This document shows positions 10,736 to 44,380 of a stretch of 64,000 bases of DNA, one piece after another (position 1 is the first letter of the stretch; each line of letters opens with the position of its first letter). The notes beneath the pieces were generated by a model that did no database searches, was not told where the DNA came from, and was given only the letters and a program-made list of their open reading frames with translations. A program made the position numbers and the translations under genes. The stretch lies in the sequence record SRR20825019_638, one strand, 5' to 3'.

Positions 10736-10817
10736 TGTCATTCCGACAAAGCGAAGCGACGAGGAATCTCACAACCCTGAACTTGAGATGAGATTTCTCA
10801 CTACGTTCGAAATGACA
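10736..10817. repeat. inverted pair of REP-like palindromes
   Basis: TGTCATTCCGACAAAGCGAAGCGACGAGGAATCT (10736-10769) and AGATTTCTCACTACGTTCGAAATGACA (10791-10817); homologs at 34134-34166 and at 34092, 35517, 43825. Confidence 0.9.
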
Positions 10818-24058: not shown

Positions 24059-25087
24059 ATGAAAACACCTTTGCTCGAATTTACCTCCAAAGGAATCTAT
24101 TGTAAAAAAGCAGATGTTTATTTGGACCCCTGGAAACCCGTGGACAAGGCCATTATTTCACACGGCCATGCCGATCACAGTAGATGGGGCCATAACAAGT
24201 ACATTACCCACCATAAGAATGTTCCTATCGTGAAGCATCGTTTGGGCGATATTTCCATTTCAGGAAAAGACTGGGGCGAAACATTCACGGTCAACAACGT
24301 GAAGTTCAGTTTCCATCCCGCCGGGCACATTGTGGGCTCCGCACAAATACGGGTAGAGCACAATGGCGAAGTATGGGTGTTCACCGGAGATTACAAAATT
24401 GAAGATGATGGGCTCACTACTCCATTTGAGCTTGTAAAATGTAACACCTTCATCACCGAATGCACCTTTGGGTTACCGGCATTTCGCTGGCGACCACAAA
24501 AAGAGGTGTTCAGTGACATCAACCAATGGTGGGCGCAAAACCAATCGGAAGGAAAAACCTCGGTGCTTTTTGGTTATTCCCTGGGCAAGGCACAACGTCT
24601 GATCAAACATTTGGACACTTCCATCGGAAAAATATACACGCACGGAGCCGTAGAAAACATGACCGAAGTGCTCCGACCCCTTACCGATTTACCGCCAACA
24701 CATCTGATTACAAAAGAAACCAAGAAAGACGAGCTTTTGGGCAATATTGTGGTTGCTCCGCCCAGTGCCCATGGAAGTCCCTGGATCAAAAAAATGGTCC
24801 CATATGTCACGGCGACCGCGAGCGGTTGGATGGCTTTTCGAGGCGCACGAAGACGGAGAGCGATTGATAAAGGTTTTGTACTAAGCGACCATTGCGATTG
24901 GAGGGGACTATTGCAGACAATCGAAGCCACCGGTGCTGAAAAAATAATCTGCACACACGGCTACACCGACATTTTCTCCAAATATTTGATGGAATTGGGC
25001 TACGATGCCCGAACCGAATCTACGCAATACGAAGGCGAACTGTCCGAAATCAATGCTAACGAACAAGAAAAATCGAAAGCGGAATGA
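24059..25087 (+). CDS. ligase-associated DNA damage response exonuclease (MBL/beta-CASP fold)
   Basis: SHGHADH, PAGHIVGSAQ, TGDYK, ITECTFGLP, LSDHCDW; first gene of the ligase/helicase/PdeM operon. Confidence 0.93.
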   Translation: MKTPLLEFTSKGIYCKKADVYLDPWKPVDKAIISHGHADHSRWGHNKYITHHKNVPIVKHRLGDISISGKDWGETFTVNNVKFSFHPAGHIVGSAQIRVEHNGEVWVFTGDYKIEDDGLTTPFELVKCNTFITECTFGLPAFRWRPQKEVFSDINQWWAQNQSEGKTSVLFGYSLGKAQRLIKHLDTSIGKIYTHGAVENMTEVLRPLTDLPPTHLITKETKKDELLGNIVVAPPSAHGSPWIKKMVPYVTATASGWMAFRGARRRRAIDKGFVLSDHCDWRGLLQTIEATGAEKIICTHGYTDIFSKYLMELGYDARTESTQYEGELSEINANEQEKSKAE

Positions 25088-26739
25088 AACAGTTTGCCAA
25101 GCTCATAAAAACATTGGACGGCACCAACAAAACCAGCGTAAAAGTGCAAGCACTGTCCCAATACTTTAAAGAAGCGAGCGACCAAGACAAGGTTTGGACC
25201 ATCGCCATACTGTCCCACAGAAGACCTCCGCGCCCCGTGAACACAACTTTGCTACGCACTTGGGCCGCTGAACTATCCCATATTCTAACTTGGCTTTTTG
25301 AGGAAAGCTATCATATTGTGGGAGATCTGGCGGAGACCATTGCCTTGGTGGTGCCCTCAACAGAAAAAGGCTCAAAAAAATCACTGACCTCCTTTTTACA
25401 GGAGATGATGGCCTTGAAACAAAAAACGGAAGCAGAAAAAAAGGAATACCTTTTTCAACACTGGACCATATTAGATTATTACGAGCGTTTTGTTTTCAAC
25501 AAACTGATTACGGGCAGCTTCAGAATCGGAGTGAGTCAAAAATTGATGACCCGTGCACTATCCAAAGCCACGGGTATTGAAGAGGACATTCTCGCTTATA
25601 AACTAATGGGCAATTGGGACCCGAACCGCATCAGTTTCCACGACTTGGTTTTGGAGGAGAAAGAGAGCGATTACCTCTCCAAACCATATCCCTTCTTTTT
25701 AGCATATGCCGTTGAGGACGACGTCACAGATTTGGGTGAGGTAACCCAATGGTCCGTAGAGCATAAATGGGACGGCATTCGGTCTCAAACCATTCTACGA
25801 AATGATGAAATCTTTGTTTGGAGTCGGGGTGAAGAACTCGTCACCGATAAATATCCAGAATTTGAAGCCTTTGTGGGCAGTATTCCAAATGGGACCGTGT
25901 TGGACGGGGAGTTGTTACCGTATCCCAAAGGGGAAATCGGCACTTTTAAAGACCTTCAGACCCGAATAGGCCGCAAGAACGTTTCAAAATCATTGTTGGA
26001 AAAAATTCCTGTCAAGTTGAAAGTCTATGATATTTTGGAATGGAAGGGGAAGGACATCAGGAATAAAACGTATCTGGAGCGAAGAAAAATTTTAGAATCT
26101 ATGATTTCGACTACGCTCAATAAACAGGTCACTGAGCGTAGTCGAAGTGACAAATTACCCTTACTCCTGTCCGAACGGATGCAATTCAATTCTTGGGAAG
26201 ACATGGCAAAAGAAAGGGAATTGTCCAGAGAAAAACACAGTGAGGGCCTGATGCTCAAACGCAATGACTCCACCTACCAAGTGGGACGAAAAAAAGGGGA
26301 TTGGTGGAAATGGAAGGTCGACCCGCTCACTATTGATGCCGTGCTCACCTACGCTATGCGGGGTCATGGTCGGCGAAGCAACCTCTTTACCGATTACACC
26401 TTTGCCCTCTGGTATGAAAATGAAGAAGGTGAAAAAGAACTGGTCACCTTTGCCAAGGCCTATTCCGGCTTAACGGACAAAGAGTTTCGACAAGTGGATG
26501 CATGGATCAAGAAAAACACGTTGGAGCGTTTTGGTCCCGTTCGGAGCGTGACCCCGCAGCACGTTTTTGAAATCGCTTTTGAAGGCATTGCTCCCTCCAA
26601 GCGTCATAAAAGTGGTGTTGCCACACGCTTTCCCAGAATTTTAAGATGGCGGAAGGACAAAAAAATCGATGAGGCCAATTCATTGGATGATTTAAAAGCA
26701 CTAATCCCGAGCAAAGCGAAGGAATCCCTCAACAAATAA
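25084..26739 (+). CDS. ATP-dependent DNA ligase (ligase-associated repair system) carrying repeat-derived peptides
   Basis: Motif I EHKWDGIR, LDGE, EGLMLK, WWKWK, RFPRI. Confidence 0.96.
   Translation: MKQFAKLIKTLDGTNKTSVKVQALSQYFKEASDQDKVWTIAILSHRRPPRPVNTTLLRTWAAELSHILTWLFEESYHIVGDLAETIALVVPSTEKGSKKSLTSFLQEMMALKQKTEAEKKEYLFQHWTILDYYERFVFNKLITGSFRIGVSQKLMTRALSKATGIEEDILAYKLMGNWDPNRISFHDLVLEEKESDYLSKPYPFFLAYAVEDDVTDLGEVTQWSVEHKWDGIRSQTILRNDEIFVWSRGEELVTDKYPEFEAFVGSIPNGTVLDGELLPYPKGEIGTFKDLQTRIGRKNVSKSLLEKIPVKLKVYDILEWKGKDIRNKTYLERRKILESMISTTLNKQVTERSRSDKLPLLLSERMQFNSWEDMAKERELSREKHSEGLMLKRNDSTYQVGRKKGDWWKWKVDPLTIDAVLTYAMRGHGRRSNLFTDYTFALWYENEEGEKELVTFAKAYSGLTDKEFRQVDAWIKKNTLERFGPVRSVTPQHVFEIAFEGIAPSKRHKSGVATRFPRILRWRKDKKIDEANSLDDLKALIPSKAKESLNK
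26104..26150. repeat. REP-like inverted pair in-frame inside the ligase gene
   Basis: Perfect 14-bp IR TTCGACTACGCTCA (26106-26119) / TGAGCGTAGTCGAA (26133-26146); encodes ISTTLNKQVTERSRSD. Confidence 0.9.
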
Positions 26740-27166
26740 ACCAGAAAAATTGAATTTGTAGCATAACCCCAGTAAATAGAAACCGAACAGATTATTTCAA
26801 ATGCTATTGTTTGAAATTTATGTGTTTAAAACACCATCAATGATGAAAGGGTATTGTTACATCTTAACGAATAAAAATAAAACCGTACTCTATATCGGGG
26901 CCACCAATGATTTACAAAGGCGTATAGGTGAGCACAAAAACGGCAAATATGCGTATTCGTTCACAAAAAGATATAATTGCCATAACTTGGTATATTTTGA
27001 AGAATTTGACACCATAAAAGAAGCCTTTGAAAGGGAAAAGCAATTAAAAGCTGGTAATCGGAAAAGGAAGGAAGATTTGATCAATGCAACAAATCCGGAT
27101 TGGAAGGATTTGTCTTTGGAATGGTAAACCCATCAATTTGACAGATTCCTTCGCTGCGCTCGGAAT
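26704..27166 (+). mobile_element. candidate REP-bounded GIY-YIG element
   Basis: Imperfect 23-bp terminal IRs ATCCCGAGCAAAGCGAAGGAATC (26704-26726) and GATTCCTTCGCTGCGCTCGGAAT (27144-27166) enclose a single nuclease gene within a conserved operon. Confidence 0.65.
26840..27127 (+). CDS. small stand-alone GIY-YIG nuclease (start 26840/26843, alternative 26801)
   Basis: GYCYIL...LYIG, DLQRR..EH, FTKRYN, EREKQLK, NPDWKDL; catalytic Tyr/Arg/His/Glu appear intact. Confidence 0.93.
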   Translation: MMKGYCYILTNKNKTVLYIGATNDLQRRIGEHKNGKYAYSFTKRYNCHNLVYFEEFDTIKEAFEREKQLKAGNRKRKEDLINATNPDWKDLSLEW

Positions 27167-29629
27167 ATGAACAGAAAAGAACTATTAGAAATAGCCGAAA
27201 ATTGGTTCCAAGAACAAAACTGGAAACCATTTTCTTTTCAAAAAGAGAGTTGGAATGCCTTTTTGGAGGGCAAACATGGCCTTTTGAACGCTCCCACTGG
27301 AAGCGGCAAAACCTATGCACTTTGGTTTCCGATCGTGCTCAACTACATCAAAAACAATTCTGATTACAAGACCAAGCACAAAAAAGGACTAAAAGCCATC
27401 TGGATTACGCCATTGCGAGCACTTTCCCAGGAAATCAAACAATCCGCAGAACGCATTACCCAAGATTTGGAAACCCAAATGACCGTGGGCATTCGAACTG
27501 GGGACACATCAGCAAAAGAACGGGCAAAAATGCGAACCCATATGCCCGACCTATTGATCACAACTCCTGAAAGCTTACAGTTATTGCTCTCATCCAAAGA
27601 CTATAAAAAAACATTCAAAAACTGCTCCGCCATTGTGGTGGACGAATGGCATGAACTTTTGGGCACCAAACGGGGTGTTCAAATGGAATTGGGAATCTCC
27701 CGATTAAAAACTATCTGCAAGGAATTACGCATTTGGGGCATATCGGCCACCATTGGAAATCTGGAGCAAGCTCGCGAAGTCCTGTTCGGGCCAACATCGC
27801 CAGAATTGGAAAATTCGGTCTTGGTCAAGGCCAACCTCAACAAAAAAATCACGGTGAAAAGTATTGTTCCAAAGGAAATGGAAACCTTTCCTTGGCGCGG
27901 GCACTTGGGATTACATCTTTTAGATCAGGTGGTGCCCATCATCAACAACAGTAAAACCACCTTGCTTTTTACCAATACCCGAAGCCAATGCGAAATCTGG
28001 TTTCAGAAAATCTTGGAAAAATACCCCGAGTTTGCTGGCGAAATGGCGATGCACCACGGCAGCATCAACAAAGAAACCCGATTGTGGGTGGAGCAGGCCA
28101 TCCGAAACCAAAGTCTAAAAGCCGTGGTCTGCACATCGAGCCTTGACCTGGGAGTTGATTTTGCGCCTGTGGAAACCGTGATCCAAAGTGGCGGTCCCAA
28201 AGGCGTAGCTCGTTTTTTACAACGTGCCGGACGTAGCGGGCACCGACCGGGCAAAGAAAGTGTCATCCATTTCTTGCCCACGCACGCCATCGAATTGGTT
28301 GAGGCTTCGGCCATGCAAAAAGCGGTATTGAACAGCGCCGTGGAAGACCGCATACCATACCTCAACAGCTTTGATGTCCTTATTCAGTATTTGACCACTT
28401 TGGCGGTTTCCGATGGGTTTTATCCGGATGAGATCTATCCTGAAATCAAACAAACGTTCTGTTATCAGACCTTGACCGAAGAACAATGGCAATGGCTGTT
28501 GAATTTTTTGGTGATGGGAAGTCAAAGTTTGAAGAGCTACGACGAGTATAAAAAGGTGGAGATTGAAGAAGATGGCAAATTCAAAGTGAACAGCAGGGCG
28601 GTTGCTATGCGACATCGGTTTCAAATCGGGACCATTGTGGGCGATGCCACCATCTCCGTTCGCTATCAAAAAGGAGGATACATTGGCAGTATCGAGGAAT
28701 ATTTTATTTCCAAATTGAGTCCCGGCGACGTTTTCACTTTTGCAGGACGTAATCTGGAATTTATTAGGATCAAAGGGATGGCCGCACACGTTCGAAATTC
28801 CAAAAAGAGAACCAACAAAGTGCCCAGCTGGATGGGAGGGCGTTTGAGTTTTTCCGCAAAGATGTCCGAACTGTTGCGGCAGGAATTGTACACCGCCGAA
28901 TTGGAGTTTTCGGAACAGTCGGAAGAAATACAAGCATTGCAGCCGATGTTTGCCAAGCAGCGGGAAGAAAGCATAGTGCCACAGCCGCATCAATTTTTGA
29001 TAGAAACCTTTAAGACCCGTGATGGCTACCACCATATGTTTTACCCTTTTGAAGGCAGGGCCATTCACGAAGGGATGAGCAGTCTCTTGGCCTATCGCAT
29101 CAGTTTGTTGATGCCGATAACCTGCTCCCTCGCTTTTAACGATTATGGGTTTGAGTTGCTATCGGACAGGGAAATCAACATTCAGGAAATTTTGGACAAC
29201 AACCTTTTTACGCCGGAGTATATGTTGTCCGACCTTCAAAAAAGTTTGAACTCCAATGAAATGGCACGAAGAAAGTTCCGTGATATTGCCGTCATCAGTG
29301 GAATGGTTTTTACGGGCTATCCCGAGAAAGGAGTCAAAATGAAGCATCTGCAAAGCAGTTCGGAATTGCTGTTTGATGTGTTCCGTGATTTTGAAGATGA
29401 TAATCTGCTCTATCAGCAAGCCTATAGCGAAACTTTTGAGCATCAATTGGAAGAAGGTCGACTACGATTGGCCTTGGAGCGAATTGCACAACAAGATATA
29501 GTTTGGAAACAATGCTCCCAACCTACGCCTCTCTCCTTCCCAATTATTACGGATAGGCTACGCGAAAAACTATCCAACGAAAAATTGGCGGACCGCATCC
29601 AACGGATGGTGAGTAAACTAACCAAATGA
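27167..29629 (+). CDS. ligase-associated DEXH-box helicase (Lhr-like)
   Basis: APTGSGKT, TPLRAL, TTPESL, DEWH, SAT, HHGS, SSLDLGVDF, QRAGRSGH. Confidence 0.95.
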   Translation: MNRKELLEIAENWFQEQNWKPFSFQKESWNAFLEGKHGLLNAPTGSGKTYALWFPIVLNYIKNNSDYKTKHKKGLKAIWITPLRALSQEIKQSAERITQDLETQMTVGIRTGDTSAKERAKMRTHMPDLLITTPESLQLLLSSKDYKKTFKNCSAIVVDEWHELLGTKRGVQMELGISRLKTICKELRIWGISATIGNLEQAREVLFGPTSPELENSVLVKANLNKKITVKSIVPKEMETFPWRGHLGLHLLDQVVPIINNSKTTLLFTNTRSQCEIWFQKILEKYPEFAGEMAMHHGSINKETRLWVEQAIRNQSLKAVVCTSSLDLGVDFAPVETVIQSGGPKGVARFLQRAGRSGHRPGKESVIHFLPTHAIELVEASAMQKAVLNSAVEDRIPYLNSFDVLIQYLTTLAVSDGFYPDEIYPEIKQTFCYQTLTEEQWQWLLNFLVMGSQSLKSYDEYKKVEIEEDGKFKVNSRAVAMRHRFQIGTIVGDATISVRYQKGGYIGSIEEYFISKLSPGDVFTFAGRNLEFIRIKGMAAHVRNSKKRTNKVPSWMGGRLSFSAKMSELLRQELYTAELEFSEQSEEIQALQPMFAKQREESIVPQPHQFLIETFKTRDGYHHMFYPFEGRAIHEGMSSLLAYRISLLMPITCSLAFNDYGFELLSDREINIQEILDNNLFTPEYMLSDLQKSLNSNEMARRKFRDIAVISGMVFTGYPEKGVKMKHLQSSSELLFDVFRDFEDDNLLYQQAYSETFEHQLEEGRLRLALERIAQQDIVWKQCSQPTPLSFPIITDRLREKLSNEKLADRIQRMVSKLTK

Positions 29630-29649
29630 CCAACAAACATCCAAGCACC

Positions 29650-29832
29650 TGTCATTACGTGCCCCGACACGGAATCTCTCTCATCCGAGTGATACTGGAA
29701 CAAGTTCAGCATAACGCGAGAAGGTGTCATTTCGAAATGAGGAGGGCAACGACGATTGAGAAATCCCATTCATTCCAAAACACATTGAAAAAAAAGATTT
29801 CTCACGCTCCCGCTGGTCGGTTCGAAATGACA
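29650..29832. repeat. cluster of four REP-like palindromes between helicase and pdeM
   Basis: Units at 29650-29677, 29691-29716, 29725-29766 and 29795-29832; the last two form a TGTCATTTCGAA...TTCGAAATGACA inverted pair. Confidence 0.88.
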
Positions 29833-29862
29833 ATTGAACTAAATTTGTAGTATCGAAGGCAA

Positions 29863-30495
29863 ATGAGACAAAATATTCAAATACATAATCAAGAGTTTCA
29901 ACTGCACCCTTTGGGTGGATTGTTTTGGGAGGAAAAATCACTCTTACTGATCAGTGATGTACACTTGGGCAAGGTATCCCATTTCAGAAAATTTGGAGCT
30001 GCGGTACCAAGAAAGGCCATTCACAAAAACTTTCTGCTTTTGGATAAACTCGTTTCGGATTTTCAGCCTTTTCAAATCTGCTTTTTGGGCGATCTGTTCC
30101 ATTCATCGCTCAACAAAGAATGGGAATTGTTTGAGAATTGGGTAGGCAAAACACCTTCCGAAATCCTTTTGGTGGCAGGCAACCACGACATTATTGCCCC
30201 CGAAAAGTTCAAACAACTTAAGATTTCAATATTTCCAGAGTTGGTTATTGACTCTTTTTTATTGACCCATCATCCCGAAGAACGTGAGGGCTATTTTACG
30301 TTTTGCGGCCATATTCATCCTTCCATTAAACTCAAAGGTTTTGGAAGGGAACACATCAAATTGCCCTGCTTTTTTAAATCCAACAATCAAATGATTCTCC
30401 CAGCTTTCGGTCAATTCACGGGCACCCATTCCCTTGACCCTAAAGATTCGGATGAAGTTTTTGCCATTGTTGAGGATAGTATTATTAAGGTTTAG
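29863..30495 (+). CDS. pdeM: ligase-associated DNA damage response endonuclease PdeM (metallophosphoesterase)
   Basis: SDVHLGK, LGDLFH, GNHD, HHP, GHIHP, LPAFGQFTG. Confidence 0.93.
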   Translation: MRQNIQIHNQEFQLHPLGGLFWEEKSLLLISDVHLGKVSHFRKFGAAVPRKAIHKNFLLLDKLVSDFQPFQICFLGDLFHSSLNKEWELFENWVGKTPSEILLVAGNHDIIAPEKFKQLKISIFPELVIDSFLLTHHPEEREGYFTFCGHIHPSIKLKGFGREHIKLPCFFKSNNQMILPAFGQFTGTHSLDPKDSDEVFAIVEDSIIKV

Positions 30496-30595
30496 ATTCT
30501 TCGCTCTCCTCAGAGTGACATAAGTAAAGACTGTTATTCCGTGCTTGACACGGAATCGTATCCGAGTGAGACGCTGAAACAAGTTCAGCGTGACG
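30494..30595. repeat. cluster of three REP-like palindromes between pdeM and mfd
   Basis: AGATTCTTCGCTCTCCTCAGAGTGACA (30494-30520, overlaps the pdeM stop), TGTTATTCCGTGCTTGACACGGAATC (30532-30557), GACGCTGAAACAAGTTCAGCGTGACG (30570-30595). Confidence 0.9.
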
Positions 30596-34091: not shown

Positions 34092-34247
34092 AGATTTCTC
34101 ACATCCGTTCGAAATGACAAGTAAGCACTCGTAGTCATTTCGACAGAGCGTAGCGACGAGAAATCCCAAGTAGCCAAGATTCCGTGTCATACTTCGACTC
34201 ATTTCGACTTCGCTCAATGACCAGCGCTCAGCATCCGCACAGAATGA
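34092..34247. repeat. composite REP-like cluster with nested units between convergent mfd and serine hydrolase
   Basis: Units at 34092-34119 and 34134-34166, plus three nested units at 34177-34247. Confidence 0.9.
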
Positions 34248-35485: not shown

Positions 35486-35608
35486 AGATTCTTCGCGGCG
35501 CTCAGAATGACAAATCAGATTTCTCACTGCGTTCGAAATGACAATTAGCACTTATGGTCATTTCGACTTCGCTCAATGACCAGCGTTCAGCATCCGTAAA
35601 GAATGACA
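35486..35608. repeat. composite REP-like cluster; direct-repeat derivative of 34092-34247
   Basis: Units at 35486-35512, 35517-35543 and 35559-35581, plus remnants to 35608. Confidence 0.9.
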
Positions 35609-42277: not shown

Positions 42278-44380
42278 ATGGCTCAAAATACTTCACCTTC
42301 CAGATACACTATTACTGCGGCACTGCCCTACACCAACGGTCCTATCCATATTGGGCACTTGGCCGGCGTATACGTTCCTGCAGACATTTACTCCCGTTAT
42401 TTACGGTTAAAAGGCAACGATGTGGCCTTTGTCTGCGGTAGCGACGAGCACGGTGTGGCCATCTCCATGAAGGCCAAAAAAGAAGGTGTCACCCCAAAAG
42501 AAATCATAGACAAGTACCACAGCATCATCAAAAAATCGTTTGCTGATTTTGGTATTTCTTTTGACAATTACTCCAGAACTTCAGCCAAAGTTCATCACGA
42601 AACTGCTTCCGAATTTTTCAAAAAAATGTATGAGCAGGGTGACTTTATCGAAGAGGAGACCGAACAATTGTACGATGATGAGGCCAAACAGTTTTTGGCA
42701 GACCGATTTGTCATTGGAACCTGCCCCAAATGCGGACACGAAGAAGCCTATGGCGACCAATGTGAAAACTGTGGCTCCTCTTTAAATGCTACGGACCTTA
42801 TCCATCCAAAATCCACCATAACCGGAACAGTTCCTTCTTTAAAAAAGACAAAACATTGGTTTTTGCCTTTGGACCGCTATGAAGGATTCCTGAAAAAATG
42901 GATTCTAGAAGAACATAAATCCGATTGGAAACCCAATGTGTACGGACAATGTAAATCTTGGATAGATGAAGGCTTGAAGCCTAGAGCTGTCACTCGCGAT
43001 TTGGATTGGGGCATTCCCGTACCTGTTGCTGGTGGGGAAGGCAAAGTACTTTATGTATGGTTCGATGCGCCCATCGGCTACATTTCATCCACCAAGGAGT
43101 GGGCCGAACGTGAAGGTAAAGATTGGGAACCGTATTGGAAAGATGAAAGTACCAAATTGGTACATTTTATCGGTAAGGATAATATTGTGTTCCACTGTAT
43201 TATCTTCCCAAGTATGTTAAAGGCCAATGGTGATTTTATTTTGCCTGACAATGTGCCTGCCAATGAGTTTCTGAACCTTGAGGGCAACAAACTTTCCACC
43301 TCCAAAAACTGGGCGGTTTGGTTGCACGAGTATTTGGAAGAGTTCCCGGATATGCAGGATGTACTTCGTTATGCGTTGACGGCAAATGCACCGGAGACTA
43401 AGGATAACGATTTTACGTGGAAGGATTTCCAGGCGAGAAACAACAACGAACTCGTAGCCATTTTTGGAAACTTTGTGAACCGAGTGGCTGTGCTGACGCA
43501 TAAATATTATGATGGAGTTGTGCCAGCACCGGCTGAATTCAAAGCTGTTGACAAAGAAGCCTTGGAAGCGCTGAAAGCGTTTCCGGATACCCTTTCCACA
43601 TCATTGGAACGCTACCGTTTCCGCGAAGCCAGTCAGGAATTGATGAACTTGGCCAGATTGGGCAACAAATATTTGGCAGATCAAGAACCGTGGAAATTGA
43701 TAAAAACCGATGAAGAGCGCGTCAAGACCATTATGTTCGTGGCGCTTCAGATTGCGACGGGATTGGCAGTGCTTAGTGAGCCATTTTTACCTTTTACTTC
43801 GGAGAAATTAAAAGGAATTCTCAATGTCATTTCGAACGAAGGTGAGAAATCTATCGAATGGGATGATGTTAGTTTAAAAGAAACCTTACTTTCAGCAGGA
43901 CACACCATCAACAAAAGCGAACTGCTCTTCAGAAAAATCGAGGACACCGAAATTCAACAACAACTGGATAAATTGGAAGCCACTAAAAAAGCAAATGCTT
44001 CGACTACGCTCAGCACAAGTGCAATGGATAAAGAAGCATCTCCGCTCAAAGACACTATCACTTTTGATGACTTTGCTAAACTTGACTTGCGGGTCGGAAC
44101 CATTATCGAAGCCGAAAAAATGCCCAAAGCCGATAAACTTTTGATTTTAAAGGTAGACATGGGACTTGATACCCGGACCATTGTATCCGGTATTGCCAAT
44201 AGCTTTACACCCGAGGACATTGTGGGCAAAAAAGTAACCGTTGTTGCTAATTTGGCCCCTCGTAAACTACGTGGTGTGGAAAGTCAAGGTATGATTTTGA
44301 TGACGGAAAATAAAAATGGTAAATTAGTTTTTGTCAACCCGGACGAACAAGACGTCACGAACGGGGAAACCATTAACTAA
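42278..44380 (+). CDS. metG: methionine--tRNA ligase with C-terminal tRNA-binding domain and repeat-derived insertions
   Basis: [17 protein letters not shown], zinc knuckle CPKC..CENC, YVWFDA, KLSTS; TATTTTTG promoter at 42252-42259. Confidence 0.98.
43825..43852 (+). repeat. REP-like unit in-frame inside metG
   Basis: TGTCATTTCGAACGAAGGTGAGAAATCT, nearly identical to the rc of 10791, 34092 and 35517; encodes VISNEGEKS. Confidence 0.92.
43996..44019 (-). repeat. second REP-like unit in-frame in the metG interdomain linker
   Basis: TGCTTCGACTACGCTCAGCA(CAAG); 14-nt core identical to 26106-26119; encodes ASTTLSTS. Confidence 0.88.

Follow-up and report, generated by a model that had tools for sequence, protein, structure and literature searches.

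A small GIY-YIG nuclease gene with flanking hairpins, probably an Ssn-type cassette, resident at the ligase-Lhr junction of a Flavobacteriaceae repair operon

A 64,000-nucleotide stretch of DNA from sequence record SRR20825019_638, here called the window, carries a small gene for a GIY-YIG nuclease between the genes of an ATP-dependent DNA ligase and an Lhr-type helicase, with a hairpin motif on either side. The locus is probably a resident cassette of the Ssn type, that is, the gene of a GIY-YIG nuclease of about 95 amino acids together with the hairpins that it recognizes, the likeness to the published SsnA being one of description. The new findings are 1) a clade of such nucleases at the ligase-Lhr junction, 2) its divergence together with the ligase, 3) an untagged hairpin subtype that is not dispersed, 4) a right-hand stem with compensatory changes and 5) polymorphism at the junction. 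An earlier reading made from the letters of the window alone (the sequence-only reading) had proposed a REPtron-like unit: the nuclease with its flanking hairpins would be what cuts or spreads the window's scattered short repeats.

The open reading frame of the nuclease (26801-27127, 108 amino acids) matched Pfam PF01541 over residues 16-90 with an E value of 2.9e-18, and the start codon is likely the one at 26840, which gives a protein of 95 amino acids. The sole other Pfam match, T5orf172 (E 2.4e-05), fell on the same residues as PF01541, so the nuclease has no second domain. The GIY-YIG catalytic residues had been called apparently intact in the sequence-only reading, and comparison with 25 relatives bore this out: Tyr7, Tyr18, Gly20, Arg28, His32, and Glu66 were invariant or at least 90% conserved. 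The C-terminal motif NPxWxDL was conserved in the nuclease clade among the same relatives. A copy in a Muricauda sp. record was 97% identical, and one at this junction in a Maribacter flavus record was 76% identical. The dN/dS of the nuclease relative to its two closest relatives was 0.04, indicating strong purifying selection.

Small GIY-YIG genes of this family are genuinely and strongly associated with flanking hairpins. Homologues with an E value of 1e-5 or better were found in 132 of 201 Flavobacteriaceae genomes, taken one per genus, with up to nine matches per genome, some of them with stop codons. A strict tagged pattern (TC-ATTxy, 6-40 nt, the complementary pair and AATC) was tested on 34 genes at 32 loci. 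It occurred within 150 bp of 20 of the 34 genes, on both sides in 14, and its density was 6.3 per kb near the genes versus 1.14 per kb in the remainder of the loci. A looser pattern without the tag, the background of which is about 1 per kb, placed one or more hairpins beside 95 of 111 genes. The stem type also followed the nuclease tree, with 26 changes versus 38-49 in 500 shuffles, a result to which relatedness contributes; cleaner support comes from the paralogues of one genome, which carry different hairpin subtypes.

The copies at the junction form essentially a single clade, the divergence of which keeps pace with that of the ligase. Relatives were found with an 8-sequence alignment, 511 were confirmed, and the named loci are the best 80 of the 511. 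The gene lay directly 3' of the ligase in 25 of these best 80 loci, comprising the 24 closest (59-97% identity) and L120, and in none of the 55 more distant loci among them. The records with a junction copy are from Muricauda, Flagellimonas, Croceitalea, Maribacter, Croceivirga, Aquimarina, Aequorivita, Dokdonia, and others. Mapped on a tree of 111 nucleases, location at the junction changed state twice, versus at least 19 times in shuffles, and the nuclease and ligase C-terminal identities were correlated (Mantel r 0.41, reached in 0 of 2000 permutations), although relatedness inflates statistics of both kinds. The Mantel set consisted of 24 of 29 loci, five with a short or missing ligase fragment having been omitted; in these 24 loci the nucleases averaged 68% identity and the ligases 88%. 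In several relatives (L015, L023, L054) the ligase stop overlaps the nuclease ATG, suggesting expression of the nuclease from the transcript of the operon. A single junction clade with correlated nuclease-ligase divergence comes close to a vertically inherited operon resident, an outcome that the sequence-only reading itself had listed as speaking against its proposal.

The two flanking 23-mers, in opposite orientation, agreed at 20 of 23 positions, and a repeat search extended the inverted arms to 29 nt with 83% complementarity. As a degenerate 23-mer with up to 3 mismatches, the motif had no site in the 64 kb other than the two flanks, and 100 shuffles contained none. The inverted pair reported earlier is therefore sound, but the term palindrome was too strong: the stems have only 5 bp around a GA-rich interior of 12 nt, and the left stem (ATCCC/GGAAT, followed by C) has one mismatch. 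Calling the flanks hairpins rests on covariation, since their folding is no better than that of shuffled sequences. In 21 aligned junction copies, 98.6% of the stem cells of the right hairpin were paired, and one stem pair was G-C in 11, A-U in 7, and C-G in 3 copies and thus paired in all of them. These compensatory changes indicate that the right stem is under selection. Of 25 related junction loci, 21 had the left motif, ATTCC...GGAATC, in the tail of the ligase, often with a hairpin nested in its loop; in L059, L060, L063, L073, and L074 the nested second hairpin lengthens the C-terminal tail of the ligase by 4-6 codons. In the window the final 12 codons of the ligase (IPSKAKESLNK*) come from the left hairpin and the sequence 3' of it.

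A third hairpin (26786-26826), absent from the earlier list, is stronger than either flank: its predicted fold as single-stranded DNA (ssDNA) has an energy of -7.2 kcal/mol (z -3.57), and 0 of 200 shuffles were as good. A direct repeat (26787-26798 and 27141-27152) makes its first bases the same as the first bases of the right hairpin. Another direct repeat, approximately 26736-26749 and 27167-27179, was considered as a target duplication and rejected; it is A-rich and no counterpart was seen in the relatives L054 and L015.

The nearest genome, G001, which shared 100% of the sampled words with the window, was taken as a stand-in for the genome of the window. All three of its small GIY-YIG genes are flanked by hairpins, each by a subtype of its own, and none of the three proteins had a match above the cut-off in an NCBIfam scan. 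The subtype of the window copy (ATTCC...GGAAT) had 3 matches in G001 at up to 2 mismatches, two of them being the flanks, and 2-5 matches per genome, junction pair included, in five genomes with a junction copy. The second gene, L002, is flanked by a perfect inverted 25-nt pair of a different sequence (1466-1490 and 1813-1837), with two partial copies further upstream; there were 14 matches in G001 at up to 3 mismatches, 3 of them beside the gene. The alignment row of L002 departs at the NPxWxDL C-terminus and by eye is more UPF0213-like. The third, L003 (contig C46, 42933-44783), lies inside an alternating array of hairpins (ATTTCGA...GAGAAATC) that is more than 1.8 kb long and reaches the end of the contig. 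Its subtype had 52 copies in G001 (control 0), 27 of them within about 1 kb of the gene.

The tagged hairpins scattered through the window are mostly of the L003 subtype. Nine hairpins of the same layout as the flanks occur elsewhere in the window with a tag, tGTC or aGTC, while the flanks are untagged and of another subtype than the scattered repeats. A hairpin pattern without the tag was not enriched over the whole window (80 versus a mean of 66.5 in 100 simulations). Since its subtype is confined to the junction, the window copy appears not to be multiplying its hairpin, and the paralogue L003 within its own array is a better candidate for a spreader of repeats. As for a transposase elsewhere in the genome, the single Y1 transposase of G001 (PF01797; L007, contig C34, 64516-64878, 156 amino acids, IS200-like) is on a different contig from the nuclease locus and is flanked by IS200-type hairpins that are unrelated to the GTC-tagged family. 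No RAYT in G001 therefore explains these hairpins, an alternative that the sequence-only reading had itself raised. Further GTC-tagged hairpins of the window, at 10740-10813, 34093-34165, 35487-35539, 43829-43851, and approximately 30495-30519, are mostly paired and lie between housekeeping genes; one overlaps the stop codon of PdeM and two flank a region downstream of mfd.

The junction is polymorphic within the genus. The ligase was found in 10 of 41 genomes, and three of the ten (G001, G021, G034) have an intact nuclease gene at the junction. In G030 the gene is a pseudogene with a stop codon and a frameshift, G017 and G020 have the left hairpin alone with the ligase stop against the Lhr ATG, G019 has neither hairpin nor gene, and G029, G002, and G038 have other repeats or spacers. 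Gene-less junctions, which had been suggested as something to look for, thus occur within the genus in two solo-hairpin forms and one clean form. In a survey of the family at the level of genera, the ligase was found in 36 of 121 genomes and 30 loci were examined. Three of these junctions carried the nuclease; eight were compact, ending in ..LIP(K)* with native codons ATT CCN; eight had short inserts and seven had long ones; four were of unmeasured length. Three of the seven long inserts consisted of a gene for a small DUF559 nuclease (E 1e-31 to 1e-34) with complex repeats of its own. These genes are in three other genera (L140, 2183-2545; L150, 2077-2439; L155, 2181-2567), and L144 has a seemingly broken copy. 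Judging from these inserts, small nuclease cassettes have settled at the ligase-Lhr junction repeatedly.

No excision product was seen in the contigs of public runs. In run X15, an environmental RNA library, a contig joins 26723 to 27194 with 39 other letters between them. These letters match the solo-hairpin allele of G020, so the contig represents another strain and not an excision event; other contigs of the same run carry the occupied form, and both junction alleles are thus present in one sample. Contigs of RNA libraries cover 26494-26869 and 26981-27242, which is no proof of transcription, and the gaps in this coverage are equally uninformative.

The positions of the features are listed in Table 1. 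The layout given in the sequence-only reading agreed with the sequence in all major respects: the small nuclease gene does lie between the ligase and Lhr genes, the left repeat supplies the C-terminal codons of the ligase and the right repeat adjoins the helicase ATG. The four genes exonuclease, ligase, Lhr, and PdeM do form the operon named there; the genes at its two ends match the two NCBIfam models for the ligase-associated DNA damage response, TIGR04122 (exonuclease) and TIGR04123 (PdeM). Nor was there any RAYT or insertion sequence transposase in the window, a domain scan having found a transposase domain in 0 of 55 open reading frames of at least 110 amino acids over the 64 kb. A reading frame of 74 codons across the hairpin doublet between Lhr and PdeM (29626-29850) had no Pfam or NCBIfam match and is probably not a gene. 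Within the ligase gene, a palindrome with a 14-bp stem (26106-26146, z -6.7) lies in frame in a hypervariable linker; in relatives the linker has other in-frame inserts of differing lengths, some of them VTERSRS-like and resembling translated hairpin repeats.

Table 1. Positions of the operon genes and hairpins around the nuclease gene (window numbering)
Feature	Position	Strand	Remarks
Ligase-associated DNA damage response exonuclease	24059..25087	+	First gene of the operon; NCBIfam TIGR04122, E 1.1e-141, above cut-off
ATP-dependent DNA ligase	25084..26739	+	Pfam DNA_ligase_A_N, DNA_ligase_A_M, DNA_ligase_A_C
Left hairpin motif, forward	26704..26726	+	Within the coding tail of the ligase; reads ATCCCGAGCAAAGCGAAGGAATC
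Third hairpin, AT-rich	26786..26826	+	Core stem 26794-26817; immediately 5' of the nuclease gene
Single-domain GIY-YIG nuclease, Ssn-like (likely start)	26840..27127	+	95 amino acids; Pfam PF01541
Right hairpin motif, reverse	27144..27166	-	Minus strand reads ATTCCGAGCGCAGCGAAGGAATC; the Lhr ATG begins at the next base
Lhr-type helicase	27167..29629	+	Pfam DEAD, Helicase_C, WH_Lhr, DEAD_assoc
Inverted doublet of GTC-tagged hairpins of another subtype	29729..29828		ATTTCGA...GAGAAATC; fills the Lhr-PdeM gap; fold z -3.3
PdeM phosphoesterase	29863..30495	+	Final gene of the operon; NCBIfam TIGR04123, E 9.2e-68

The closest published system is that of Chenal et al. (Nat Commun 2025, PMC11893778), the only work that a literature search returned for a pairing of GIY-YIG proteins with hairpin repeats. 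The parts of that paper used here describe single-domain GIY-YIG proteins of about 94 amino acids (CDD cd10448, Ssn) that are flanked by NTS/SRM hairpins in many phyla. Each of four purified Ssn homologues bound its own repeat in the form of ssDNA, recognized a single strand, and cleaved a few nucleotides upstream; RNA was not bound. The C on the 3' side of the palindrome mattered most for binding and the three bases on its 5' side for cutting. The Discussion points out that the arrangement NTS-ssnA-NTS resembles an insertion sequence and likens it to IS200/IS605 and REP-associated transposases. It had been left undecided in the sequence-only reading whether the association was already in print; in the parts cited, Chenal et al. 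had shown the association and the ssDNA cleavage and had drawn the analogy to insertion sequences and to REP/RAYT systems. Supplementary Data 4 of the paper includes Maribacter flavus and Muricauda lutisoli among the holders of a cd10448 homologue.

The window locus resembles these cassettes in several respects, 1) the nuclease has 95 amino acids and a single GIY-YIG domain, as compared to about 94 residues in the Chenal family, 2) Tyr7, Tyr18, and Glu66 correspond, by number only and not by alignment, to Tyr6, Tyr17, and Glu64, the residues mutated in the Neisseria enzyme, 3) the gene is flanked by hairpins on both sides, with a stem that starts with AT and is followed by C, and 4) the hairpin variant differs by paralogue and hairpins cluster around one paralogue. 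It differs in that the flanks fall outside the SRM pattern and lack the GTC tag, which governs cleavage in the Neisseria enzyme; the stems are short with a long GA-rich interior and their subtype is not dispersed; and the cassette lies inside a repair operon, where translation of one hairpin yields the ligase tail.

A number of results weigh against assigning the locus to the Ssn type as a resident cassette. The best sequence matches of the nuclease among solved structures were UPF0213 (YhbQ-like) proteins, 1zg2 (BH0048, E 3e-6) and 1ywl (EF2693, E 2.5e-4), which are of the same size and also have a single domain, although their identity to the nuclease is low; the same search of the PDB returned no entry named Ssn. 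The published SRM pattern (PMC11893778) had 0 sites in the window, flanks included. The predicted ssDNA folding of the two flanks did not exceed that of shuffles (z 0.42 and 0.04), and the flanks have no GTC tag, cacta preceding ATCCC in one and ttcat preceding ATTCC in the other. The nuclease was present in only 3 of 30 ligase loci at the level of genera; a single old insertion would therefore have to be followed by numerous losses or by transfer of the operon as a whole. Finally, besides the relatedness that inflates the tree-based and Mantel statistics, there are duplicate genomes among the named loci, the flanks of L062 being the same as those of L022 and the flanks of L064 the same as those of L016. 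With regard to the SRM pattern, it demands pyrimidines at positions where Flavobacteriaceae stems have G or A, and this mismatch may be the reason why a few Flavobacteriaceae rows in the table of Chenal et al. show SRM fold values of 0.23-2.6, that is, little or no enrichment.

If the locus is a resident Ssn-type cassette, its history was probably as follows. In an ancestor shared by a group of Flavobacteriaceae, the cassette would have inserted, on one or perhaps two occasions, between the stop codon of the ligase and the start of Lhr. It would then have been inherited with the operon, which is itself patchy. The left hairpin would have become the C-terminal tail of the ligase, and the right hairpin would have been placed directly 5' of the Lhr start codon. 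Selection would have kept the cassette, with decay or loss in some lines. By analogy with the purified homologues, the window nuclease most likely binds its own hairpins as ssDNA, on one strand, and cuts a few bases upstream. Given flanks without a GTC tag and a subtype that is not dispersed, this copy may bind its own hairpins without spreading them.

The strongest alternative, which we nevertheless consider rather unlikely, is that the nuclease is a recruited member of the operon that works with the ligase, Lhr, the exonuclease, and PdeM in DNA-damage repair and is no longer selfish. The nuclease might then cut hairpin single strands exposed by the helicase, its private hairpins serving as control sites. 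The low dN/dS fits such a role, but a persisting selfish gene would show purifying selection too. Synteny in 25 of the best 80 named loci from several genera, the divergence of nuclease and ligase in step, the overlap of ligase stop and nuclease ATG, the confinement of the hairpin subtype to the operon, and the small DUF559 nuclease in the same junction of three other genera all point in the same direction. A recruited member is, however, difficult to reconcile with the absence of the gene from 27 of 30 ligase loci at the level of genera and from 6 of 10 within the genus, or with the pseudogenes L020 (stop codon and frameshift) and L071 (a remnant of 36 amino acids).

An extension of these ideas can be offered only tentatively and is, in our judgement, unlikely. 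Ssn cassettes could be nuclease-only counterparts of REPtrons, in which an ssDNA nick at the cassette's own hairpin would be followed by host repair that copies the hairpin, or the gene with its hairpins, to other sites. The junction clade could then have been captured as the hairpin-specific ssDNA endonuclease of the operon, again with private hairpins as control sites.

That the window nuclease is the active part of a REPtron-like unit and cuts and spreads the scattered repeats, as first proposed, now seems improbable. The inverted hairpin pair does bracket the gene, the family has multiple copies and a patchy distribution (132 of 201 genomes, up to nine matches, some with stop codons), the junction is polymorphic within the genus, and no RAYT is linked to the hairpins. 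The paralogue L003 even lies inside an array with 27 of the 52 genomic copies of its subtype; this, however, places the scattered, GTC-tagged subtype with L003 and not with the window copy, the untagged subtype of which has only the 2-5 matches per genome noted above, and the junction copies, in essence a single clade, have diverged along with the ligase. No GIY-YIG enzyme is known to rejoin DNA, so a spread of repeats would need host repair.

REP and REPIN elements with RAYT transposases (REPtrons) were reportedly described by Nunvar in 2010, by Ton-Hoang in 2012, and by Bertels and Rainey. The likeness of the window locus to a REPtron consists in a single-copy enzyme gene between inverted hairpin repeats, vertical persistence, and doublets or arrays elsewhere in the genome. 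The enzymes differ, since that of the REPtron is an HUH Y1 (IS200/IS605-like) transposase and that of the window a GIY-YIG nuclease. The hairpins are of the (C/T)GTC type here and of the GTAG type there, and the flanks of the window copy are not a dispersed family of many copies (3 matches in G001, 2-5 per genome in five genomes). GIY-YIG homing endonucleases (I-TevI, Seg type) share the GIY-YIG core and are selfish genes that insert between host genes. The window nuclease differs from them in its 95 amino acids without a DNA-binding extension and in its score with the NCBIfam model for group I intron endonucleases, TIGR01453, which was 21 bits against a cut-off of 56.05.

The hairpins themselves are comparable to the REP superfamily with CGTC/TGTC tags that was defined by Di Nocera, De Gregorio and Rocco (2013, PMC3733652), the relevant passages of which note that a dedicated transposase is lacking and describe stems of 8-9 bp starting with AT and loops of 4-5 nt. 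TGTC-tagged hairpins with AT stems, mostly head-to-head dimers and some of them inside repair genes, with no dedicated transposase known, are common to the window and the superfamily as described in those passages. In contrast, both flanks of the nuclease gene lack the 5' CGTC/TGTC tag and have outer stems of 5 bp with long interiors, and Flavobacteriaceae are not mentioned in the same passages. It is very unlikely that the hairpins act as RNA, as terminators, stabilizers or elements of Lhr translational control, with their nearness to the nuclease gene incidental: the right hairpin adjoins the Lhr ATG, the compensatory changes suit an RNA stem no less than a DNA stem, and Di Nocera et al., in the passages cited, argue that many REPs are transcribed, but the pairing of nuclease and hairpin recurs at unrelated loci of the family, each paralogue in G001 has its own subtype, the left copy is inside a coding region, and the Ssn enzymes of Chenal et al. 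are reported, in the parts cited, to bind ssDNA and not RNA.

The locus opens no new class, because the pairing of a small nuclease with "orphan" hairpins of the CGTC type, including the cutting of ssDNA, has already been published. A literature search found no paper that places a GIY-YIG gene in the Lhr-PdeM operon. Taken as a resident Ssn-type cassette, the locus provides a case study of Flavobacteriaceae members of the family, whose hairpin variants escape the published SRM pattern, and of a clade with a fixed place at a single operon junction, where one of the hairpins encodes the ligase tail. If Ssn cassettes were indeed nuclease-only counterparts of REPtrons and the junction clade a captured form of them, the occupied, solo-hairpin, clean, and decayed alleles of one genus would be snapshots of a life cycle. 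This allele series within a single genus makes it easier to test whether such cassettes move and whether hosts recruit them.

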